Of a DNA stretch of 64,000 bases, positions 20,509 to 57,886 are shown in pieces. A program made the position numbers and the translations under genes. The first letter of the stretch is position 1. Every line of letters starts with the position of its first letter. Under the pieces are notes generated by a model that had not been told where the DNA came from, ran no database searches, and was given only the letters and a program-made list of their open reading frames with translations. The DNA is from a virus: IMG/VR virus record IMGVR_UViG_3300026484_000333, positions 19,932-83,931 of that record, one strand, 5' to 3'.

Positions 20509-20549
20509 TTGTTTTCCTTTTTAATTTATTATATAACATATATCAGCTT

Positions 20550-20725
20550 AAAGGAAAACAATAAAAACAAAGGAGAGAAAAATGAATAGATTGATTGAAT
20601 TATGAGCTGGAAGCTCAATTGAAGTTTATACAGAAATAAACTTCAATTGAACGCCCATCTCAGGCGTTCTATATTTAACACCCACATCAGGTGTTATAAA
20701 TTGAACGCCCACATCAGGCGTTCTA
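20550..20725 (-). ncRNA. Putative late structured ncRNA: three 27-nt hairpin repeats, two further hairpins and an anti-RBS tail
   Basis: CCGATATAA motif at 20729-20737 with no ORF behind it; hairpins start at 20649, 20676 and 20703 with compensatory base changes; 14-bp inverted repeat CAATTGAAGTTTAT/ATAAACTTCAATTG. Confidence 0.65.
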
Positions 20726-20741
20726 CTGTTATATCGGAAAA

Positions 20742-21791
20742 TCACACAAGTCTTGTTGAAATATAAACGCCTTTGTATGTTCTTTCACTTAAAGTTGCAT
20801 TAGTAGTAAATAAAGGAAAATGTTTAATACTTACAGTTTCTTTGAAAAATTCACTGAAATAAACTTTTCCATCTGATGTTTCTTGTCTAAATCTAAATTT
20901 TAGTTGATTTACTCTTCCCCATTGTGGATTTGAACTTGAAAAGTCAAGTGATATTTTATTGCTTGTGAATTTACCAATAGGATAATAGGTACTTCTTCTT
21001 GATTTTGACCTTCCTCCGGTATTTCCGTGATTATTAAAGTTGGTAACTTTATCATAGCCCCACATCTCAAGAACTAAATCTTCTGGGAAAGCTTGTCCAA
21101 AAACAAAACCGCCTACTGAAATTGTATTAAAAAATTTCTTGTTTAATTGCATAGTGTCAGTTCCGTTAAACTGCCTATATGTTACCGTCCAATCCGTTGG
21201 GTCATCATTATTCATAACTGCACTTTCTAAATACATACTCTGCTTTGTATTATCCCATAAAGTAGTAGGTATCATAGCATTTCTTGCTTTTACTCTTGTA
21301 CTACCTTCATATCTATCTAATCTTATATTATACATTCCACCGAATTTAATCGGCTCTTTATAAATAATTTTAATTGTTCCTGATGGATAGCCGTTAGGGA
21401 AACTAATATGCTGGGTGTAACCCGCAGGATTTGCAAATTGTATTCCAAATTCCCAATCATCAAACAACGTTTCATTGATATAGATTCTTACTAAATCTTT
21501 ATTTGGAAAAATTAATTGTCTTAACCATAATAAGTTATGGGGTGAAATATTATCTGTATGTGAATACATAATTATTTTTTCTTCTCTTATATTATTGCCT
21601 CCAAACGGAATTAAATATCCATTTGTAATTGCATCGTTTACATTGCTTGAAGCCACTGAATTATCCGCCACAACATAATAACCATAATCACCTGAATCCA
21701 CAATAACCAGCTGATTTAATTCATAATTTTTTAACATAATTGTGTCAGTTGTTTTTAACACAGGTATTTTATAATGTGTGTAAACTGCCAT
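20742..21791 (-). CDS. Virion decoration/fibre-like protein, paralog of the C-terminal half of the upstream gene
   Basis: RIYINETLFDDWEFG vs RVWVNDAEYTDWDFG; SIKHFPLFTT vs SIRTFPIFTT. Confidence 0.55.
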   Translation of the reverse strand: MAVYTHYKIPVLKTTDTIMLKNYELNQLVIVDSGDYGYYVVADNSVASSNVNDAITNGYLIPFGGNNIREEKIIMYSHTDNISPHNLLWLRQLIFPNKDLVRIYINETLFDDWEFGIQFANPAGYTQHISFPNGYPSGTIKIIYKEPIKFGGMYNIRLDRYEGSTRVKARNAMIPTTLWDNTKQSMYLESAVMNNDDPTDWTVTYRQFNGTDTMQLNKKFFNTISVGGFVFGQAFPEDLVLEMWGYDKVTNFNNHGNTGGRSKSRRSTYYPIGKFTSNKISLDFSSSNPQWGRVNQLKFRFRQETSDGKVYFSEFFKETVSIKHFPLFTTNATLSERTYKGVYISTRLV

Positions 21792-21800
21792 TTTTACTCC

Positions 21801-23672
21801 TTATATAAGTTTCATTAATTTGTAGTTTCCTACAAATTTGTTTTCATTATCTTCTGCATCTGTAGTAAATATCGGAAAAGTCCTTATGCTAATAACCGTT
21901 GACAACCATTGACTAAAAAATACATTTCCTTCATCATCTTTTCTGCCTAGCCTAACATAATATAAACCACAATCATATAAACCTGAAATTTTATTTTTTG
22001 TCATTTTTCCAATCGGAACTAAACGTCCTTGTGCTTCTTTATTTTTTGGAATATGCTTACTATTTGGAGATTTAACATCAGACGCTCTCCATAGCTCAAT
22101 CCAATAATTATCAGGTAATACTTCTTCTTTTGGAAATTCAGCTATATAACCAAAATTAGCACTTGCTTTTTCTACGTCTATTGTTATATTTGAATTATCC
22201 ACACGCTTATAGTGGCACATATAACGTCCGAAATCCATATAATTATTTAATAAATCAACAGAATCCAAATAGAATCTATTGCCCTGACTATCGGTGATAA
22301 ATTTGGTAATTAATTTTGACCTTACCATTACATCAGTACTGCCTTCTTTTCTATATAAAACAATTTTATAATCACCTAAAGCAATCGGCTCAACATATTC
22401 AATTTTGATAACATCATCGTCATTTAAACTTGTATTAAATTTCAAATGTGTTGTATAATCGCTGTTTAAACTTTGGACTTGGTCGCCAAAATCCCAATCT
22501 GTATATTCAGCATCATTTACCCAAACTCTAAACAAATTCTTATCTTTATAAACATAGCGTTTTAAGAACAACAAACTTTTACCTGAAATATTACTGCCTT
22601 TTCTATAAATAAAAACACGATTTAAACTGTCGGCAGTAGCATTAAAACTAAAAAGCTCTCCCGTACTAATATCAACACCTATAACATAAGAATTTTCTGG
22701 TTTTTGTTTAGGTGTTTTTCCATAACTATAAAAAATAGGATTATCTTTTTTAAAATCAAATTTATCTTTAGTTACAGACATATAAGCTTCAATTGAGGCA
22801 AAATCATCACCTAATGCTACATCAAATTGTGCTGTATCTCCATAAGCACCGACTGCCAATTGCTTATCACTAAAGTTACCGCCTTTTCCAGCCAAATAGG
22901 TTTGATAAAAACTTGAAGGATACATTGTTAGAAAGACTTGGTCTTTATATGGGTCAGTTGAAGTAGAGGCAGTAAAACTTGCCCCAGCATAATTATCAGA
23001 ATTATTTGTATTTGTTACATTTACTTCAACAATTCCATATACATTTTTACTAATTTGAATTTTTTGAACATCGTTTGCAGTTTGGTCGCTTGGGGTTAAA
23101 GTTTTACCTATTCCTGTATCTGCATCTTCTTTTTGCCAATAGTTCTTTCCATCAATTATATCACACAAATCTTTTGGCGTATATCTTCTAACTTCATTAA
23201 CATCACAAGGGTGGGTTTTTTCTTCATCAGATATTTTATGAATATTAACTCCCAAATAAAACCAATTTGGATTGCCTTCTTCATCGCTTCTTGCTTCATA
23301 CAAACCAGCTTTTTTTCTATTAAATAAAACCCAAGTTCCTGTTGCTTTTTGAACTAACCATTGTTCTCCAAGATGGTCGGCTGGGTCTGGTAAATCAGCA
23401 TAAGTTTCAACTTCGCCTTCCCAACCGTCAAAATTAGAACTGCCTCCTCCTAAATTAACCTCAACCCAATCAACAAGATTATCCTGTAATTGCCAAAATT
23501 TTTGGTCTTCTTGGTTATAAACAACCATTCCCGCTTTTCTTCTCAAATCAGGAATGTTATCACGCTCTTCAGTTGTGGCTACAACACGAAACCCGCCTTC
23601 TAAATGGATATCCTTAATTAAAGGAAAATCCCCATTAGGATAAAATAAACCCGTTATTTTTATACCAGCCAT
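21801..23672 (-). CDS. Head/tail fibre-like structural protein
   Basis: N-terminal GGFRVVATTEERDNIP..RRKAGMVVY and GEVETYADLP modules common in fibre proteins. Confidence 0.6.
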   Translation of the reverse strand: MAGIKITGLFYPNGDFPLIKDIHLEGGFRVVATTEERDNIPDLRRKAGMVVYNQEDQKFWQLQDNLVDWVEVNLGGGSSNFDGWEGEVETYADLPDPADHLGEQWLVQKATGTWVLFNRKKAGLYEARSDEEGNPNWFYLGVNIHKISDEEKTHPCDVNEVRRYTPKDLCDIIDGKNYWQKEDADTGIGKTLTPSDQTANDVQKIQISKNVYGIVEVNVTNTNNSDNYAGASFTASTSTDPYKDQVFLTMYPSSFYQTYLAGKGGNFSDKQLAVGAYGDTAQFDVALGDDFASIEAYMSVTKDKFDFKKDNPIFYSYGKTPKQKPENSYVIGVDISTGELFSFNATADSLNRVFIYRKGSNISGKSLLFLKRYVYKDKNLFRVWVNDAEYTDWDFGDQVQSLNSDYTTHLKFNTSLNDDDVIKIEYVEPIALGDYKIVLYRKEGSTDVMVRSKLITKFITDSQGNRFYLDSVDLLNNYMDFGRYMCHYKRVDNSNITIDVEKASANFGYIAEFPKEEVLPDNYWIELWRASDVKSPNSKHIPKNKEAQGRLVPIGKMTKNKISGLYDCGLYYVRLGRKDDEGNVFFSQWLSTVISIRTFPIFTTDAEDNENKFVGNYKLMKLI

Positions 23673-34029: not shown

Positions 34030-34101
34030 TTTTATTTTCTCCTTCTTATAGCTTTACTTATATATCAGCTTTATAAATTGATTAAAAAATTTACAATTTT
34101 G

Positions 34102-34258
34102 TAAAGGATTTTATACAAGAGTTTTGGCAAAATTTCACACATTTTATAAAAAATCTTTTATACAAAAATTGCTCAAATGCCCATAAATTCGGACTTTTGT
34201 AAATTGTCTGAAAGTGTCCGGAGCCTTAAAGTTTATATTTATATCCAACAAAAATTTC
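34102..34258 (-). repeat. Dispersed ~150-bp intergenic element, copy 3 (inverted)
   Basis: Reverse complement of the conserved blocks in copies 1 and 2. Confidence 0.95.
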
Positions 34259-34353
34259 ATTTTTTTTATTCTATAAACTGATATATAAATAAAGTTATAA
34301 AAATAAACAAATTCATAATTTATGTTTTATGTTTTATAATTTATATTTTAATC

Positions 34354-34382
34354 TTGACAATAGATGGATTTTTAGGTAGAAT
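34354..34382 (+). promoter_or_regulatory. Sigma70 promoter of the plus-strand operon
   Basis: TTGACA-N17-TAGAAT upstream of 34408. Confidence 0.75.
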
Positions 34383-34407
34383 TAAATAAAAAAAGAAAGG
34401 AGCATAA

Positions 34408-36276
34408 ATGAATAGAATGAATAAATTGATTGAATTAATCGAAAAAGAAAAAAAAGAAAGAAAAAAAATTGAAAAAATTTTGATAAAAAGAAAAGATAAA
34501 AAAGTTGCAATCAAGCCAAACTCATTTAATGAATTAGCTCAATTGCTTAAAAATTATACAATAATTTTATATCAAATGTCAAGAGTTTTATCAAATTTTT
34601 CTAACAAAAATTCAGGAATTCTTAACAATTTGTTATTTTTGTTAGAAAAATTTAACAATTCGTCAAGTTTTTATAGAAATTATAAACATTTTGTTATGGC
34701 AATAATCGAAGGAAAAATCGAGCCACAATTTGTTGCCCAAAATTTCGCTCAATTTTATATTGCCCTTACTTCAACGCATTTTGAAACCAAAGGTTTGAGC
34801 TTTGTTGCAAATCCTTATCAAGCTACGCAAATTGATAAAGCAAGACCGAATACAAAATATGGAAAATTCAGCTATATTAGAAAACAGGGATATGAGCAGA
34901 ATTTAGGTCTGACTTTTGACAGTGAAAGCTATGATGTTGTTGAATATTTTAAAATGATAACAAATGACAAATGTGCGTTTTTTACACCAAACAACAAATA
35001 TTCTAAAAATTCATTAAGATTTGATGTTGATGATAAAACTTTGAATATGGATGAAATGGAAATTTTGATTAGAACTGCGATGGACAAATTGAACATAAAC
35101 GGTGAAGTCGAAATCGTCGAAACAACGAAAGGTTGGCAGTTTGCTGTTTATGTTCCGTTGTTTTTCGTTAAAACTTTTTATGATAAAAATGATTATGTTG
35201 TTGAGCAGATTTTCGTTAGTGATAGAAAAACAACAAAAGCATTTAAGGCATATCAAAAATTCAACGAAAAATTTGTTGAGATTTTAGAAAATTTGGCGGT
35301 TGAGCTTTTTAATGTCAAATTAGAAATTGACAAATTTGCAGTAGAACAAGAAAAAGTTAGAATTTGGAGAAATGCAAAAGCCCACAATCATCGCTATTTT
35401 TCGGTGGTTGAAAACGAAAAATCAACGATTTTAGAAATGATTGATTTGCCAAAATTAGAACAAAAAGAAAATTTTGTCAATCATTTTGAAGCCAAAAAAG
35501 CAAATGAAATTGAACTCCGCAACAAAATGCCGAATGTTTATAAGTTCTTTAAAAAACACAACTTTTCAATGCCGAAAATCAAATGCGGATTGATTGGCAA
35601 AATGAGCGAAAATACCGAAAGTTTTTATCTTACAAAAGCAATTGTTCACAAATTTATAATTGATTATAATCATTTAGAAAATTTTGATGTTTTGTTGTTG
35701 GATTTGGCAGAAATGATAGAACTTGATTTTAGGAATATTTATCAAGAAGAAAAATCAATTGAAAATATAAATGTTGTGATTGATTATTATTTAGAAAATT
35801 TTGATGTTTATTTAACCGCCCAGAAAACCGCAAGAAGCCGAATGTTTGTTAAAAGTGCGAAAGCACTTGATAACATAAGAAAAAATAGAAATAATTTAGA
35901 TGAAATGAAACAAAAAATTGAAAAAAGCAAAAATGAACTTGAAAAATTTAAAAATAACGATGAAAATAAATTGTCAATTAGGAAAATGTCCGAAGAATTG
36001 AAGAAAATTGCTTTTGATTTGCCAAAATCAACGCTTTATGAATATATCAAAAAAGAAAATGTTGATATTTTAGTTGAAATGATTGAAATGTTGTATAGAT
36101 ATGTTATAATTTTAATGAACGGCAGTGAAAAAGAACAGCAAAAAGCAATTCAATTGTTCGAAATTATCGAACAGTTACAAGGTGCGGTCAATTATGTTAT
36201 AGCTATGATGAAGTTTGATTTGGTTGAAAATGAAAAATTACGAAAATTTTTTTATGTTGAAAAACGGAAGGAATAA
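34408..36276 (+). CDS. Putative replication initiator: AEP/primase-like Rep with C-terminal HTH
   Basis: LRFDVDD (DxD), ETTKGWQF and RIWRN..H resemble AEP motifs I-III; HTH LSIRKMSEEL...LPKSTLYEYIK. Confidence 0.55.
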   Translation: MNRMNKLIELIEKEKKERKKIEKILIKRKDKKVAIKPNSFNELAQLLKNYTIILYQMSRVLSNFSNKNSGILNNLLFLLEKFNNSSSFYRNYKHFVMAIIEGKIEPQFVAQNFAQFYIALTSTHFETKGLSFVANPYQATQIDKARPNTKYGKFSYIRKQGYEQNLGLTFDSESYDVVEYFKMITNDKCAFFTPNNKYSKNSLRFDVDDKTLNMDEMEILIRTAMDKLNINGEVEIVETTKGWQFAVYVPLFFVKTFYDKNDYVVEQIFVSDRKTTKAFKAYQKFNEKFVEILENLAVELFNVKLEIDKFAVEQEKVRIWRNAKAHNHRYFSVVENEKSTILEMIDLPKLEQKENFVNHFEAKKANEIELRNKMPNVYKFFKKHNFSMPKIKCGLIGKMSENTESFYLTKAIVHKFIIDYNHLENFDVLLLDLAEMIELDFRNIYQEEKSIENINVVIDYYLENFDVYLTAQKTARSRMFVKSAKALDNIRKNRNNLDEMKQKIEKSKNELEKFKNNDENKLSIRKMSEELKKIAFDLPKSTLYEYIKKENVDILVEMIEMLYRYVIILMNGSEKEQQKAIQLFEIIEQLQGAVNYVIAMMKFDLVENEKLRKFFYVEKRKE

Positions 36277-41203: not shown

Positions 41204-41372
41204 GGCAGTTGGTTGCCTGTTGGTTTGGTTTTTGCAGGTTTAGGGTCAGGTACTTTTTAGTAAATAGCTAAAATCTTGTTAGTTATATGCCAAGCTATTT
41301 GTGAGTAATTGTTAGGTGTTTTAGAGTCAGCAACTTTTTGAGTGCTTTTCGCTCAACCAACCTCCCCCGTTG

Positions 41373-41478
41373 TTATTCACAACTACCTGTGAATAACTTG
41401 TTTTGGTGTCAAACACTTATTTTTTACTTAACATAATGCATATTCTCGGGAAAATTTAAATGGGAAAAATGTGAATAA
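41373..41478. promoter_or_regulatory. Cluster of DnaA-box-like 9-mers (TTATTCACA)
   Basis: TTATTCACA at 41373-41381; TGTGAATAA at 41388-41396 and 41470-41478; non-coding region. Confidence 0.65.
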
Positions 41479-41693
41479 CTCGGCGAATAGTTGTTCAGTT
41501 TTAAGTGAATATTAAGGATTCTTTACAAAACAGTGAAAATTTAGTGCCAGACACCATAAAGGATTTTTAACGCTAGGTAGTTTATAGAATAAGCGTCTGA
41601 CACTATTTTATCGGGATTTGGAGGAAGTTATTTATCTGGCTATAAAAAAAGGGCGAAAAATGGTGCGTTTTATGGGTCACATTGTAGACTTAA

Positions 41694-41815
41694 AATTTTT
41701 TAGTAATTATTTTATAATCACTTGGCAATTTTTTAGTAATTATTTTATAATCACTTGGCAATTTTTTAGTAATTATTTTGTAATTACTTGGCAATCATTT
41801 TTATAATCATTTGGC
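41694..41815. repeat. AT-rich 33-bp tandem repeat (3 copies plus a degenerate partial)
   Basis: AATTTTTTAGTAATTATTTTATAATCACTTGGC at 41694, 41727 and 41760 (two mismatches in the third). Confidence 0.95.
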
Positions 41816-41908
41816 GGTTATCTGTTATTCATTTTATAATTATCTACCTGTTATTTATTTATAAAATAGTGCCAGACACTTATTTTTATTTAATAGCAAA
41901 AAGGATAA

Positions 41909-45519: not shown

Positions 45520-45617
45520 AGTTTAAAAGGGAGGCACAAAGGCAAAAGCCTGAAATCTCGGAGGCACAAATGAAATTCTATAAGTAAGGAGGCACAATTT
45601 CCTTTTTGGCTTTTGCC
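45520..45617 (-). ncRNA. Putative sRNA with three anti-Shine-Dalgarno motifs (UUGUGCCUCC)
   Basis: Own consensus promoter at 45624-45652 with no RBS-led ORF behind it; 10-bp closing stem GGCAAAAGCC/GGCUUUUGCC; motifs at 45530-45539, 45560-45569 and 45588-45597. Confidence 0.75.
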
Positions 45618-45623
45618 ATTCAA

Positions 45624-45652
45624 ATTATAAAAAATTTTTAACTATTTGTCAA
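45624..45652 (-). promoter_or_regulatory. Consensus sigma70 promoter of the putative sRNA
   Basis: TTGACA (45652-45647)-N17-TATAAT (45629-45624). Confidence 0.88.
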
Positions 45653-48417: not shown

Positions 48418-48732
48418 TTATTTACAATCATAATATGAAATGCCACATCTAATTGAATAACCCTCTTCACCAATTTCCTTATAAGTAAAAAGTCTGCCAA
48501 AATTTACAACATTTTTCTCTTCTTTTAGTAAATAACAAATCTGGCGGGTCAATTCTTTTAAAACATTTTCATAATTTATTTCCTCAAAAGCCCAAAACCA
48601 TCCGTGTTCTTGGGCTAACTCTATAAAATCTTGTATTAGACAACCAAATTCTTTTTTAACTTTTTTTCTTATTTTTTTGTTCAATACATCTTTTTTAACC
48701 CATTTTTTAACTTTTTCTTTTTTTAAATACAT
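48418..48732 (-). CDS. Hypothetical protein
   Basis: Start revised to ATG 48732 after AAAGGAGAGAAAA. Confidence 0.65.
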   Translation of the reverse strand: MYLKKEKVKKWVKKDVLNKKIRKKVKKEFGCLIQDFIELAQEHGWFWAFEEINYENVLKELTRQICYLLKEEKNVVNFGRLFTYKEIGEEGYSIRCGISYYDCK

Positions 48733-48786
48733 TTTTCTCTCCTTTGTTTTAAAATTTTCCACCATAATAATCAATAACTAAATTAA

Positions 48787-52412: not shown

Positions 52413-52679
52413 TTATGCTCTAAAATCTAATTTTAAATCAAAATCTTTTAATTTTAGCTCTTTTTCCCATAATTTACCGTTTAATCTTTTATTTTCTGCT
52501 TTTTCTTGTTCATAAAGTTCTTTATAATAATTAATTTTATTTTCAAGCTCATTAACATACTCTTGTAATACACGTAAGTGAAAAAACCTGATAGATAATT
52601 TATCATTATCAGTAACTTCAAGTTTCCATCTTTTAATTGCATCAATAGTAGGTTGAACAATTTGTTTTTTGTTTTTCAT
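52413..52679 (-). CDS. Hypothetical coiled-coil protein
   Basis: Sigma70 promoter at 52710-52738; AAAGGAGAGAAAA RBS. Confidence 0.7.
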   Translation of the reverse strand: MKNKKQIVQPTIDAIKRWKLEVTDNDKLSIRFFHLRVLQEYVNELENKINYYKELYEQEKAENKRLNGKLWEKELKLKDFDLKLDFRA

Positions 52680-52724
52680 TTTTCTCTCCTTTATTTTTAT
52701 TGTATAGAAATTATAAAAAATTTT

Positions 52725-53619
52725 TTATGATTTGTCAAGCTCTTTTAGATGTTTTTCAATTTCTTTTTCATCAATATTATTTGGTAAGGTTATATTTTCT
52801 TTGTAATTATAACCCAAATCAAGCTCTGCTTCTAATTTTACAATAGGCTCTTCATATAAACCATTATTATAATTTCCTATCATACATTTAATTAAATTAT
52901 CATTTACAAATTTAATTATTTTCGGGTTTAATTTTATATATAATAATATGCTATCGTGGATTGTATTAACAATTTTCACTTCATCAATTAATCCAGCTTC
53001 TTCAATTTTCTTTTGAAAACAAACTATCGCATAAAGCGTTAAAATATTCCCACTTTGAATGTTAAAGTTAGTCGCTACCCTTTGTGCTTTTTCTTTTATT
53101 TGACTGCTCCAGCTTTTAATATCCGGTATTAACAGTCTTAATCCTGAATACCTTGAAACTAAATAACCTTGTTTTTCTGTTTGTTTAATGATACTATCTT
53201 GATATTCTTTTGTAACTTTATATAAAGTCCAATAAGCCTCATATATTTCTTTTCCTACTAAATGCTCACTTGCACCATAACTCATACCAAAAGTATAAGG
53301 CTTTCCTTTTTGTCTAATTTCAGGATATTTTTTCTTAATAGAGTTTATTACATTAATTCTATATGTTTCTCTATCAATTTCCTTTTTATTTTTATAATTA
53401 TCTGGTAACAGACTTTCACTAAAATAATCAACTTCTTCATTTTCTAATTCAACCTCATAAAATTTTGTATCAATTTTAAGTTTTTCTATTTTTTCTTTAA
53501 TATCAAGCATTTCATCAGAAAAATAGTAAAAGGCGTTCTGACAATGACCATCCACACCTTTTAAAAATACATCTAATTTGGCGGGGTCTTTACTTGCGTT
53601 TGCTATTAATCTATCTTCG
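52725..53619 (-). CDS. polA: Family A DNA polymerase, exon 2
   Basis: EDRLIAN, motif B RQKGKPYTFGMSYG, NFNIQS and motif C TIHDSI. Confidence 0.93.
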
Positions 53620-53908
53620 CTTACCGTTACGCAGGACGCCACTCCTGCTCCACCCTTTCGGGTGGTGTCGGACTATATCATCTCCCACAGCATTACCTGT
53701 TTGGGAGGCGGGTGTTTCGACAGGTCAGTCGCTTACCTGCCTACTCTACTCGGTGGCTTTTTAAACCCCTTTCGATAGTCTCTGCACCTTCCTATTCTGT
53801 TAAAGAATAGGCTTGGCTCAGGATTGCCCTCAGCATTACCTGTTAGGGTTTCCCTGAATTAACCCGCTTTTCTATCAGAGTTTCCTCTGATAGCCCCCCA
53901 TTCTGTTA
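53620..53908 (-). mobile_element. Group I self-splicing intron (289 nt, IC3-like core, no endonuclease ORF) in polA motif A
   Basis: Core elements P AAUUCAGGGAAA, Q AAUCCUGAGC, R GUGCAGAGACUA and S GAUAUAGUCC. Exon GCCCU pairs with IGS GGGGC (U-G at the splice site). Terminal G at 53620; splicing restores DYSA-L-EDR. Confidence 0.93.
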
Positions 53909-55701
53909 AGGGCAGAATAATCACTTGCACCAAGTAAAAACCCATCAGGTGCTATAAATAATTTTTTAATTTCTTTTCCATACTTACTACCACTTGGTAT
54001 TGTTTGCATATTAATAACCCCGCTACTACTTAATCTACCACTAATTGTTCCGCTTTGATTAAAGTTGGCAAAAATTCTATAATCATTTGGTGTAACTTCA
54101 ACACACCCCTCAATCATATTTTTTAAATAAGCGGTTTTTATTTTTTCACTTGCTTGATATTCACTTATTAAGTTTAATACTTCTAATTTTTCCTCATCTG
54201 TAATTGTTTTTTTCCATTCTTCTAAAACATCATTACCTGTTGAAGGCTCTCCAGCTTTTGTAGTTTCAATAACAGGCAAATCCATAATTTCAAAAAATAG
54301 TATTTTCTTTTGTTGACTACTGCTTGGATTGAACGGTTTTAAAAATTCCTCCCAATTTTCCTTTTTATTTTTATGTGTTTTATTATATTTTTCTTTTGCC
54401 TGTAATGCTATAACTTTTTCAGTAGCTTTGATATAAACATTTTCTCTTAATTTTGCCAAATCTCTTTCAACTATTTCCTCCATTTCTTTATAGAATTCTT
54501 TAGTTCGCTCTAAATCAATTCTCATACCATTCATTTTCATTTTATTTAAAGCAAAGCCAATATCTCTAAACTTCTTATAAGTTTCTATAAAACCTTCTTG
54601 CTTTAACTCTTTCCATAAATCTTTAAAAATTTTGTAGTTTGCCACAACGTCAATATTGTTATATGTGGCAACTTTTTCAAAATCATACTCAATCAGTTTG
54701 CTTTGGTCAATTTCTTTATCCCAATCTCCAAAATATTTAAAAGCCAACTGTTTTAAACTCAAACTTTTTCTTTCAGTGGAATTATAAAGCAAATAAGCCA
54801 TTAATAAAGTATCATCTATTTTAAATTGATTTATTAAAGGCTCTTGATTTATTTGAAAGCTAAAATCTCTCATAATTTCGTGGACTAAAAAAGTTAAGTC
54901 AAAGCCTAAAAAATTATGCCCTATAATTACGCCTTCATAATTTTCAAAAAACTCTTTTAAGTACTGTTTAATCAATTGATAATTTTCTTCATTATGATAT
55001 TGAGGATGTATAGCTATACAAGCGGGGTTTTTATCATCTTTTGTAAAACTAATTGTAAGAAGTCGGTTTTTATACCACTCAAGCCCTGTTGTTTCAATAT
55101 CACACACTACAGCTTTTGCTTTTAATAATTCTTCTAAATATTGTTTTATTTCATCCGGTTGTTTTAAAAAAGAATGATTAATTTCAATATTTTCAAATTT
55201 ATCTTTATATTCACCCTTTTCAAAGGCTTTATAAGCCTCAAAACTTAATTGCAGTTCTCTTGCTCTGTTAGGATATTTTTCAACAATAATAGGATTTAAA
55301 AAAGGTACAACATTTATTTGGGATAGGTCAAAAATTTCTTTATTTTTTCCACTCCCAAATGTAAATTCAGCACCTTTAATAACTCTACCAAAATTATTAC
55401 TAAAGTTTTTATCTTTTGCAATTTCCTGATAAGTATCTGAATGCCCTATTAACCATACATCTATGCCCATAATTTGTGAATACTCAAAAACCTCTTCTAT
55501 AACTTCTTTTAAAACTGCTTTTTTAATTCTGCCTTTTTTAGGTACAGGTATTGATACAAAAGCAAAATCTTTTACATCCAAATTAAAAGGTTGTAAAAGC
55601 TGTTTATGTAAAAAACCATAATTTTCTTTAAAGCAGATATTATCTGGTAACCAGATAATTGCTTTTGGGTTTGCATTGTTGTAAGTAAATAAATAGTTCA
55701 T
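53909..55701 (-). CDS. polA: Family A DNA polymerase, exon 1 (N-terminal domain, 3'-5' exonuclease, start of polymerase domain)
   Basis: CDIETTGL, GHNFLGFDL, FNPSS, TISGRLSS..NMQTIP and ASDYSAL motifs. Confidence 0.95.
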
Positions 55702-55702
55702 T

Positions 55703-56152
55703 TTAATCTCCTTTTATATTAATTTCAATAATTATTTTATTATTATTTTCTTTATTTATGTTTATTGAGTAATTTTTATTTTCTTCATAATTTTTATAAG
55801 GTTTTAATAAACAATCCATAGAAATAAACAAATCGTTTAATTCATAAACACAACCATCATCTGCAGTAAATAAAATACTACTAAAATTGGCATCTTGTGG
55901 AGGTCTATTATCAAAACTAATACTTTTTATTTTAAGAGGGCTTTTTCTTTTATCAAAATAAAATTTGCAACCAGTCAATTTATTAAGTTCTTCCCATTTT
56001 GAAAATTCAATTATAAAAAAGTTTTCTGGTAAAGGCTTTTTTAAAAAAAGCCATCTATCTAAATTATAGACTTTTAAGTCTTTTAGATTAATTAGTAACC
56101 TCATTCTTTTTCTTTCTCGATAAAGAGGGTCATTTTCTGTAAAAATTCTCAT
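55703..56152 (-). CDS. Hypothetical protein
   Basis: AAAGGAGAGAAAA RBS; TTGCTT-N17-TATAAT promoter upstream. Confidence 0.7.
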   Translation of the reverse strand: MRIFTENDPLYRERKRMRLLINLKDLKVYNLDRWLFLKKPLPENFFIIEFSKWEELNKLTGCKFYFDKRKSPLKIKSISFDNRPPQDANFSSILFTADDGCVYELNDLFISMDCLLKPYKNYEENKNYSININKENNNKIIIEINIKGD

Positions 56153-56220
56153 TTTTCTCTCCTTTGGTTTAATTTTACAGTAGTATTATAAAGAATTTTT
56201 TATAAAAAAGCAAGAGAAAA

Positions 56221-57578: not shown

Positions 57579-57857
57579 CTAAACCATTTCAAAAAATTTG
57601 CTTAATTTATTATATAAAACAGCTCCTATTCTATAATTACCGTTCCCCAAATTTTCAATATATTTCTCAAACCTTTTTAAAACATATAAAATTCTCTGTT
57701 TGCTATCTCCTGTTTCTTTGGCAATTTCTTTTAAAGAAAATTTACCTTTTTCTCTTTGACTTTTTGCACCTAATAATAAATATAACAAACCTCTTGCTGA
57801 AACAGTATTAAGTTCGTCTTTTGAAATTTCATCCAATCTTTGTAGTAATAATTTCAT
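57579..57857 (-). CDS. Winged-HTH DNA-binding protein
   Basis: FSLKEIAKETGDSKQRILYVLKR. Confidence 0.65.
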   Translation of the reverse strand: MKLLLQRLDEISKDELNTVSARGLLYLLLGAKSQREKGKFSLKEIAKETGDSKQRILYVLKRFEKYIENLGNGNYRIGAVLYNKLSKFFEMV

Positions 57858-57886
57858 TTTTCTCTCCTTATAAAAAATTTTTTAAA

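Follow-up and report, generated by a model that had tools for sequence, protein, structure and literature searches.

Why does the DNA in front of a phage portal gene contain, in inverted orientation, a copy of the region in which genes elsewhere in the same genome begin? The question is raised by a 47-nucleotide (nt) element at positions 20559-20605 of a 64,000-nt stretch of viral DNA, hereafter the window, which comprises bases 19932-83931 of the 83,931-base-pair (bp) phage contig IMGVR_UViG_3300026484_000333 (~28% G+C; genome G0). Positions are those of the window unless they are marked as genome positions. The element lies in the 233-nt gap that separates a gene of 349 amino acids (aa) from the portal gene. 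Two relatives were compared with G0, namely G1 (IMG/VR record G001) and G2 (IMG/VR record G002), whose portal proteins are 88% and 94% identical to that of G0 (tblastn) and which both share the layout of the gap. We propose, tentatively and at somewhat less than an even chance, that the element is a late-transcribed anti-leader which acts in trans by pairing with the start regions of early messenger RNAs (mRNAs).

A probable inverted copy of an early-gene leader

On rereading, the plus strand at 20559-20605 is exactly as quoted in a first-pass annotation of this DNA, including a small open reading frame (ORF) encoding MNRLIEL*. A 27-mer of the element recurs on the minus strand at 52676-52702 (one mismatch) and 56149-56175 (three mismatches), and none of 100 shuffles gave any match. 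The leader of the gene at 52679 had been credited with 26 of 27 matching positions; this holds, and BLAST lengthens the alignment to 28/29. Equally sound are the exact runs of 21, 18 and 17 nt that had been reported for the leaders at 48732, 56152 and 57857. The 16-mer AAAGGAGAGAAAAATG occurs exactly at 48730, 52677 and 56150 and with one mismatch at 57855, always on the minus strand, and if up to two mismatches are allowed it has 17 matches against 0.45 expected. A scan of the whole contig revealed a further near copy outside the window (genome 11149-11175, minus strand, 25/27). The 16-mer has four exact copies, of which only the one in the element is located off a real gene start and antisense to its neighbors. 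The observation itself is real and non-random.

The matching leaders belong to a family of about eight cassettes in G0 that read TTGACA-N17-TATAAT-N7-CAATAAAAAYAAAGGAGAGAAAAATG, a near-consensus σ70 promoter with a characteristic A-rich spacer. The inverted copy starts at CAAT, approximately where transcription of the cassettes would begin, and stops at ATGAA; the –35 region, the spacer and the –10 region are missing. An origin of the element as an orphan, inverted and promoter-less copy of the transcribed leader of an early cassette appears well supported by these features. The cassette at genome 7518, on the minus strand, has no obvious ribosome-binding site after it.

The other part of the element comes from a different gene. 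The 21 nt ATGAATAGATTGATTGAATTA of the mini-ORF match the start of a 622-aa gene at 34417-34437 in 20 of 21 positions, as claimed before, and the G2 homologue of that gene in 20 of 20; the G0 copy of the 622-aa gene carries a 9-nt duplication relative to the G2 form. Because in G0 the leader copy is joined to 21 nt of this gene start, the 47 nt represent a mosaic of two gene starts. The name “Rep-like” given earlier to the 622-aa gene has no support, as its product matched no Pfam or PHROG family. In front of this gene lies an AT-rich non-coding stretch of 380 nt (34030-34407) with divergent late-type motifs (34068, minus strand; 34278, plus strand) and a consensus σ70 promoter, which may be a control or origin region.

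The element lies within a structured, putatively late leader

On the minus strand, the first feature after the stop codon of the 349-aa gene is the motif CCGATATAA. Three 27-nt hairpin repeats come next, followed by hairpins of 14 bp (AT-rich) and 5 bp and by a variable stretch. Then come the anti-leader UUCAUUUUUCUCUCCUUUGUUUUUAUUG, the 12-nt sequence UUGUUUUCCUUU, a second motif CUGAUAUAU, 29 nt and the portal AUG. The distal motif CCGATATAA is indeed present where the first-pass annotation had placed it, and all five sites of this sequence in the window are on the minus strand (0.35 expected). The general form of the motif, C[CT]GATATA[AT], precedes a same-strand predicted start by 25-34 nt at 11 of its 16 sites in G0, 10 of 12 in G1 and 9 of 13 in G2, compared to 0/16, 0/12 and 0/13 for the reverse-complement control; in all three genomes, structural genes follow at this distance. 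From this position only, we infer that C[CT]GATATA[AT] is a phage-specific late promoter element; it looks like a motif serving a phage-modified or phage-encoded transcription factor. The distal motif is the sole site of the late cluster with no start codon within 60 nt downstream, and the same exception is found in each genome. Behind it come about 190 nt of structured non-coding sequence, and it stands 150 nt upstream of the element.

The hairpin repeats occur at a single locus in each of the three genomes and show compensatory changes from G:C to A:U. The long hairpin has changed on both sides at three pairs and contains G:U pairs on the portal-sense strand in the three-genome comparison. 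We take the three-hairpin repeats to resemble leader hairpins of the boxB/nut or put type, and they may be a protein-binding or antitermination site.

On the plus strand, no σ70-like site was found between 20000 and 20559, in agreement with the earlier failure to find a promoter on this strand, and plus-strand candidates in the relatives are weak and not conserved and do not exceed their frequency in shuffled sequence. The hairpin domain is more stable in the portal sense than on the opposite strand in all three genomes (–55.7 vs. –50.1, –49.9 vs. –44.7 and –50.7 vs. –37.5 kcal/mol), and its consensus fold carries G:U pairs and compensatory changes on the portal-sense strand. Based on the fold stability, the absence of a plus-strand promoter and the weak candidates of the relatives, a late RNA from the minus strand is most likely the relevant molecule. 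No intrinsic terminator-like site was detected on this strand before the element, neither in the window nor in G1 or G2, and therefore the element would be an internal part of a long portal leader. This also bears on two points of that annotation. An RNA that ends at the hairpins before 20605, which would have counted against the idea, finds no counterpart in any of the three genomes, and the description of the element as an RNA tail cannot be maintained, given that no terminator was found and that the second late-type motif lies downstream of the element.

The anti-leader is a conservation island

Between the three genomes, 23/26, 23/26 and 23/25 positions of the anti-leader are identical. 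The adjoining variable mini-ORF body reaches only 13/25, 16/25 and 10/21, and the spacer to the proximal motif 10/15, 2/15 and 3/15; among the other blocks, the distal motif has 13-15/15, the hairpin repeats 68-71/79 and the long hairpin 30-31/40. At fourfold-degenerate sites, identity is 0.66 and 0.53 in the portal gene and 0.46 and 0.38 in the upstream gene. Since its identity exceeds that of the flanking blocks and of the fourfold-degenerate sites, the anti-leader forms an island of conservation. The G1 variant AAAAAACAAAAGGAGAA is identical over 17 nt to cassettes specific for G1. The mini-ORFs of the three genomes, MNRLIEL, MKPNFKGRTFN and MKKKKERKLN (7, 11 and 10 codons), are unrelated, which argues against a conserved plus-strand gene. 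An intact gene starting with MNRLIEL, which the earlier annotation had considered for the relatives, is present in neither; they have the unrelated mini-ORFs of 11 and 10 aa instead.

No close relatives beyond G1 and G2 were found in IMG/VR. The GenBank phage collection gave no DNA match, and all portal protein matches in it were below 60% identity (22-26% among the matches listed). A metagenome scan returned the same two relatives, one relative with 64% portal identity and one contig that ends inside the portal gene, and a pattern scan of genome contigs gave no match. With a looser hairpin pattern, 49 loci were obtained from viral contigs, including both known relatives; the other 47 come from many unrelated contigs. 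In the 64% relative, the motif ACGATATAA, which is similar to the late-type motif, stands 33 nt before the portal gene.

G1 contains plus-strand σ70 cassettes (G001:C1:23480-24200, 35680-35900 and 41280-41900) with ORFs of 128 and 86 aa, 41 aa and 189 aa, respectively. They are inserted in the minus-strand late cluster, one of them between the portal and the next head gene, and the window has none of these.

Predicted pairing with early start regions

For the trans-acting anti-leader that we propose, the steps would be as follows. Late in infection, the minus strand would be transcribed, either with the CCGATATAA motif at 20737 as promoter or through transcripts that continue from the terminase operon. 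The leader copy, which is part of a conserved and structured non-coding leader (~220 nt) in front of the portal gene, would thereby become the pyrimidine-rich anti-leader UUCAUUUUUCUCUCCUUUGUUUUUAUUG, which could anneal over 21-29 bp to the Shine-Dalgarno (SD) sequence, the spacer and the AUG of the unstructured leaders of several mRNAs driven by σ70 promoters. Such duplexes would block translation and probably expose the mRNAs to double-strand-specific cleavage. The outcome would be an RNA-based shut-off of one class of early genes after the late genes have been switched on. We infer both that a minus-strand RNA spans the element and that the pairing occurs and matters.

Start regions were collected with a crude caller that took ORFs with a minimum of 45 codons and an SD-like motif and ignored starts lacking the motif; for the pairing analysis, start regions less than 35 nt from a contig end were dropped as well, leaving 119 (G0), 104 (G1) and 101 (G2). 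The anti-leader core (26 nt) pairs at –24 kcal/mol or below with eight of these in G0, five in G1 and three in G2. None of 150 dinucleotide shuffles per genome reached the observed best energy, the shuffle mean at the –24 cut-off was 0.00-0.01, and the reversed element had no partner at this threshold. A target prediction against a shuffled background, which had been suggested as a check on the pairing idea, thus comes out in favor of the element over composition-matched sequences in all three genomes. The best energies with own start regions compared to those of the other two genomes are –33.1 vs. –33.1 and –27.3 for G0, –27.9 vs. –25.7 and –22.9 for G1, and –32.8 vs. –30.9 and –24.1 kcal/mol for G2. 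The own-genome start regions are therefore best or tied in three of three genomes, a pattern that covers three genomes only and that gene conversion would yield as well.

When the whole leader was co-folded with 67-nt 5′ ends of the targets, the gain from dimer formation, including the cost of unfolding, was –28.6 to –34.8 kcal/mol (G0), –15.3 to –17.3 kcal/mol (G1) and –25.1 to –27.3 kcal/mol (G2). On their own, the targets have almost no structure (–0.5 to –3.2 kcal/mol). In the modeled G0 leader, with the start assumed 7 nt after the motif, the anti-SD sequence is unpaired with a probability of 0.87.

The best targets are mostly the first genes behind σ70 cassettes, with ORFs of 88, 115, 149, 83, 215 and 92 aa. 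Their near-consensus σ70 promoters suggest a class of early or middle genes of the replication module that would be read by the host polymerase. If the element is extended through the mini-ORF, the 622-aa gene ranks fourth of 119 in G0, and its homologues are outside the top ten in G1 and G2. According to the first-pass annotation, a late RNA might shut off both a class of middle genes and the “initiator”. Of this, the pairing with the leaders stands as a prediction, whereas the match to the 622-aa gene is confined to G0 and the functional label of this gene lacks family support, as described above.

Several points weigh against a regulatory role in trans. Complementarity above that of shuffles follows automatically from the homology of element and leaders, and therefore the shuffle test does not indicate selection. 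The seed is less accessible in the relatives, with a probability of being unpaired of 0.51 in G2 and 0.31 in G1. With no terminator found, the RNA would not be a discrete small RNA (sRNA). The timing classes are assigned from promoter motifs alone, and searches of Pfam and PHROGs returned no family for the four target genes tested. The element is known from three genomes only, and the relative with 64% portal identity has neither the hairpins nor the anti-leader. Finally, both the way in which the element follows the leader variants and the patch from the 622-aa gene in G0 are expected from conversion between dispersed cassettes.

Alternative explanations for the element

This last point leads to the main rival reading, which we consider somewhat less probable than the trans-acting anti-leader: the element would be a non-functional relic of an early cassette or small moron inserted here in inverted orientation, of which promoter and ORF decayed while short-patch gene conversion kept the leader similar to the working leaders. 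Such a relic would account for the conservation, for the match to genome-specific variants and for the hypervariable body. Complete plus-strand σ70 cassettes with ORFs are found in the late cluster of G1, one of them directly downstream of the portal gene and with 17 nt in common with the G1 element, and so inverted cassettes do land in this region. The mini-ORF body of G0, a copy of 20-21 nt of another gene start, is a visible recombination patch, which indicates that short patches occur at the site of the element, and a hypervariable body is what repeated patches from different donors would produce. Repeated regulatory cassettes (PeSLs) are described as drivers of shuffling in T4-type phages (PMC2839356). 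Against a relic speaks that no other exact 16-mer copy in the window is an orphan, and that the transcribed part alone was retained and the promoter never. Moreover, the block was kept at one site in three genomes in which 34-62% of the neutral sites have changed and in which insertions and deletions lie right beside it. In all three lineages, conversion across 27-bp inverted repeats separated by 28-50 kb would need to be faster than mutation.

An improbable alternative is that the tract works in cis as an anti-SD sequence, which on long transcripts folds onto the portal start and lowers translation; translation would proceed on shorter transcripts, which start at the proximal motif and do not include the tract. 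In the minimum free energy folds of all three genomes, tract and portal start region are base-paired, and RNAalifold predicts a helix of 12 pairs with one compensatory pair (G:C in G0, A:U in G2, G:U in G1). In G0, positions 20550-20561 form a perfect 12-bp stem with 20509-20520. The proximal late-type motif occupies the 29-nt loop between these strands; its sequence CTGATATAT is invariant in the three genomes, and its presumed promoter activity is deduced from the position of the motif at 9-11 other genes per genome. The mean probability that the portal start is unpaired is 0.22 in the long and 0.48 in the short transcript of G0, and 0.25 and 0.51 in G1. In the modeled G0 leader, the 12-bp stem holds the portal SD sequence, and the anti-leader is left in an internal loop.

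Dinucleotide-shuffled versions of the tract do equally well or better at masking the portal start in 35/100, 84/100 and 23/100 trials for the three genomes, and in G2 the accessibility of the start region in long and short transcripts is nearly equal (0.33 vs. 0.38). For the core, the portal start is a poor partner (–10.0, –9.4 and –12.8 kcal/mol; ranks 86/119, 80/104 and 57/101), and therefore only the neighboring 12-nt module is compatible with an anti-SD role in cis. This perfect module is located outside the core and is absent or different in both relatives. A cis mechanism also leaves unexplained the 28/29 identity to the leader of another gene and why upstream transcripts that carry the same late-type motifs should be silenced. 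For the core, we rejected the cis role as not specific, based on the shuffle control and the low rank of the portal start.

Slightly less probable still is that tract and hairpins form a late leader with some other role of the minus strand, such as protein binding, antitermination or mRNA processing, in which case the complementarity to early leaders would be a legacy. The whole intergenic region is conserved and structured, with a mean column identity of 84% and z-scores of –5.3 to –6.9, and three hairpins with conserved G-N-N-N-U loops follow directly after the promoter-like motif. Independent conservation would, however, not predict that the G1 element changes in step with the G1 leaders. 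No candidate binding protein is known, and Rfam 15 gave no family match: the best of 20 listed matches, all far below threshold, scored 21.6 bits compared to a gathering score of 72, and the lowest E value was 0.056.

Very improbable is a working start on the plus strand, be it of a tiny translated ORF or of an RNA leader antisense to the 349-aa gene: a strong SD sequence with correct spacing and an ATG are retained in three genomes, and a terminator-like hairpin is present on the plus strand at 20649-20669, but the window has no upstream σ70-like site, sites in the relatives show the lack of conservation described above, the peptides are unrelated, no gene follows, and in three of three genomes the hairpin domain folds less stably here than on the minus strand. 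On the same grounds of promoter, peptides and structure, we rejected a plus-strand gene, intact or decayed, that is still expressed, to the extent that sequence allows such an exclusion. A packaging (pac) site or genome end was also considered and is unlikely, the relatives being classed with direct terminal repeats at their contig ends.

A second inverted start-region locus at 45.5 kb

The window harbors a comparable arrangement at 45520-45652 on the minus strand, where a non-coding stretch driven by a strong σ70 cassette contains UUGUGCCUCC three times inside a long-range stem (GGCAAAAGCC...GGCUUUUGCC). The complement of UUGUGCCUCC is GGAGGCACAA(ATG), or GGAGG(C/T)A(C/T)AA-ATG, which is the type of start region used by the next four genes downstream (45184, 44823, 44519 and 43246). 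G2 has retained this locus, and a crude search of G1 did not detect it. A second inverted start-region locus in the same genome raises the prior for a regulatory use of such copies. It is conceivable, if unlikely, that this clade times its expression partly by RNA alone, with the portal leader silencing the early class and an early sRNA from the 45.5-kb locus restraining a different class, both derived from inverted leader cassettes.

Genomic context of the element

Genes on the minus strand of window positions 1-26000 encode structural functions (terminase large subunit, portal, a gene similar to head protease/major head protein), and those at 42000-64000 replication functions (DNA polymerase in two ORFs, two helicases, primase and ligase). 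The features of the locus and the predicted targets are listed in Table 1.

Table 1. Positions of the element, its surroundings, its presumed source cassettes and its predicted targets
Feature	Position	Strand	Remarks
Anti-leader core	20559-20585	–	Reverse complement of early-cassette 5′ leader CAATAAAAACAAAGGAGAGAAAAATGA; spans SD, spacer and AUG
Mini-ORF MNRLIEL*	20582-20605	+	21 nt as in 622-aa gene start; hypervariable between genomes
Second module UUGUUUUCCUUU	20550-20561	–	Perfect 12-nt complement of portal SD region 20509-20520; G0-specific
Proximal late-type motif CTGATATAT	20538-20546	–	29 nt before portal ATG; 9/9 identical in three genomes
Short hairpin	20604-20616	–	Between repeats and anti-leader
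Long AT-rich hairpin	20616-20649	–	14 bp; kept in three genomes
Three tandem 27-nt repeats	20645-20725	–	Each a 7-8 bp hairpin (GAACGCC-N7-GGCGTTC) with G-N-N-N-U loop
Distal late-type motif CCGATATAA	20729-20737	–	Directly after stop codon of 349-aa gene
Late-type motif sites in the window	956, 6939, 7669, 10150, 14812, 16756, 19141, 20538, 20729, 24598, 26004, 34060	–	
Early cassettes	26217 (+), 45250 (–), 45652 (–), 49100 (–), 52738 (–), 56213 (–); outside the window, genome 7518 (–), 11211 (–)		Near-identical
Best predicted target: 88-aa gene leader/start	52676-52702	–	TTGACA-17-TATAAT promoter; –33.1 kcal/mol, ddG –32.4
Predicted target: 104-aa gene leader	48730-48750	–	21 nt exact
Predicted target: 149-aa gene leader	56149-56166	–	18 nt exact; σ70-like promoter
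Predicted target: 92-aa gene leader	57853-57869	–	17 nt exact
622-aa gene start	34408-34437	+	Complementary to mini-ORF part of minus-strand RNA, G0 only
Portal gene, 452 aa	19150-20508	–	phrog_12, E 2.8e-55
349-aa gene	20742-21791	–	No family assigned; ends 233 nt before portal

Three further observations concern neighboring or distant genes. Between terminase and portal, the minus-strand genes 20742-21791 and 21801-23672 have similar C-terminal sequences (...FPLFTTNATLSE... and ...FPIFTTDAEDNE...) and are probably paralogues. The 349-aa gene diverges much faster than the portal gene (59-83% compared to 90-95% aa identity). The two ORFs of the DNA polymerase, 52725-53642 and 53875-55701 on the minus strand, are 232 nt apart, and both match phrog_17 at consecutive profile positions.

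Comparison with known systems

How lytic phages shut off their early genes has been worked out for only a few model phages, in which proteins are responsible. If the anti-leader is functional, it would represent a new variant of phage antisense control and a simple mechanism that is recognizable from sequence alone. A single inversion would then suffice to turn dispersed promoter-leader cassettes into regulators, and orphan inverted copies of start regions in late leaders would provide a search rule for uncultured phages. If it is a relic maintained by conversion, it offers a clean case of concerted evolution among very short phage regulatory repeats. Among the papers listed on phage antisense RNA at SD regions, as far as titles and the openings of abstracts disclose, which is a weak basis, none describes a late leader antisense to early start regions.

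In bacteria, multi-target sRNAs use one C/U-rich anti-SD seed to pair with the SD regions of several mRNAs. These are discrete molecules with terminators of their own and short seeds, in contrast to the 21-29 nt of pairing proposed here and an RNA with no 3′ end detected before the portal gene. Among phage RNAs, c4 is cut from the leader of a transcript that also carries its target, and it controls a single operon, that of the antirepressor, for the immunity of temperate phages. The c4 RNA of P1 and P7 is described as an antisense RNA that binds around the ribosome-binding site and blocks translation (PMC12197685). Our candidate, by contrast, would act on several dispersed operons in a probably lytic phage. 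Also unlike c4, its carrier is the leader of the portal mRNA, which has no known processing signal.

With respect to the proposed outcome, the proteins RegA and RegB of T4 are comparable: RegB cuts within GGAG SD motifs, and RegA acts by competing with the ribosome for the start region (PMC3014915). As outlined there, both inactivate many early messages at their sites of translation initiation as infection proceeds, and a class-wide shut-off at SD sequence and AUG is likewise the outcome proposed here. The difference is that RegA and RegB are proteins, the latter recognizing a short motif, while here a segment of a late leader RNA would pair over 21-29 nt with no homology to either. Should the reading that includes the 45.5-kb locus be true, two RNAs from inverted copies would do what RegA and RegB do in T4.

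For the T4 genes e, soc, 49 and I-TevI, a hairpin is reported to silence long transcripts, and a late promoter inside it gives rise to translated ones (PMC3014915). The layout of gene e, as summarized there, is shared by the portal leader: a strand complementary to the start region, a late-type motif and the start region itself follow each other. It differs in that the core pairs poorly with the portal start and only the G0-specific 12-nt module fits this scheme. PeSLs, as portrayed in PMC2839356, resemble the early cassettes in being repeated, strong σ70-like promoter cassettes that lie among small genes and recombine, and cassettes of this kind are the likely source of the element. A PeSL combines a promoter with a terminator stem-loop, and the cassettes here combine promoter, leader and SD sequence, with no sequence relationship between the two. 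In function, the closest known systems are thus RegA/RegB and c4, in layout the hairpin of T4 gene e, and in origin the PeSL cassettes.

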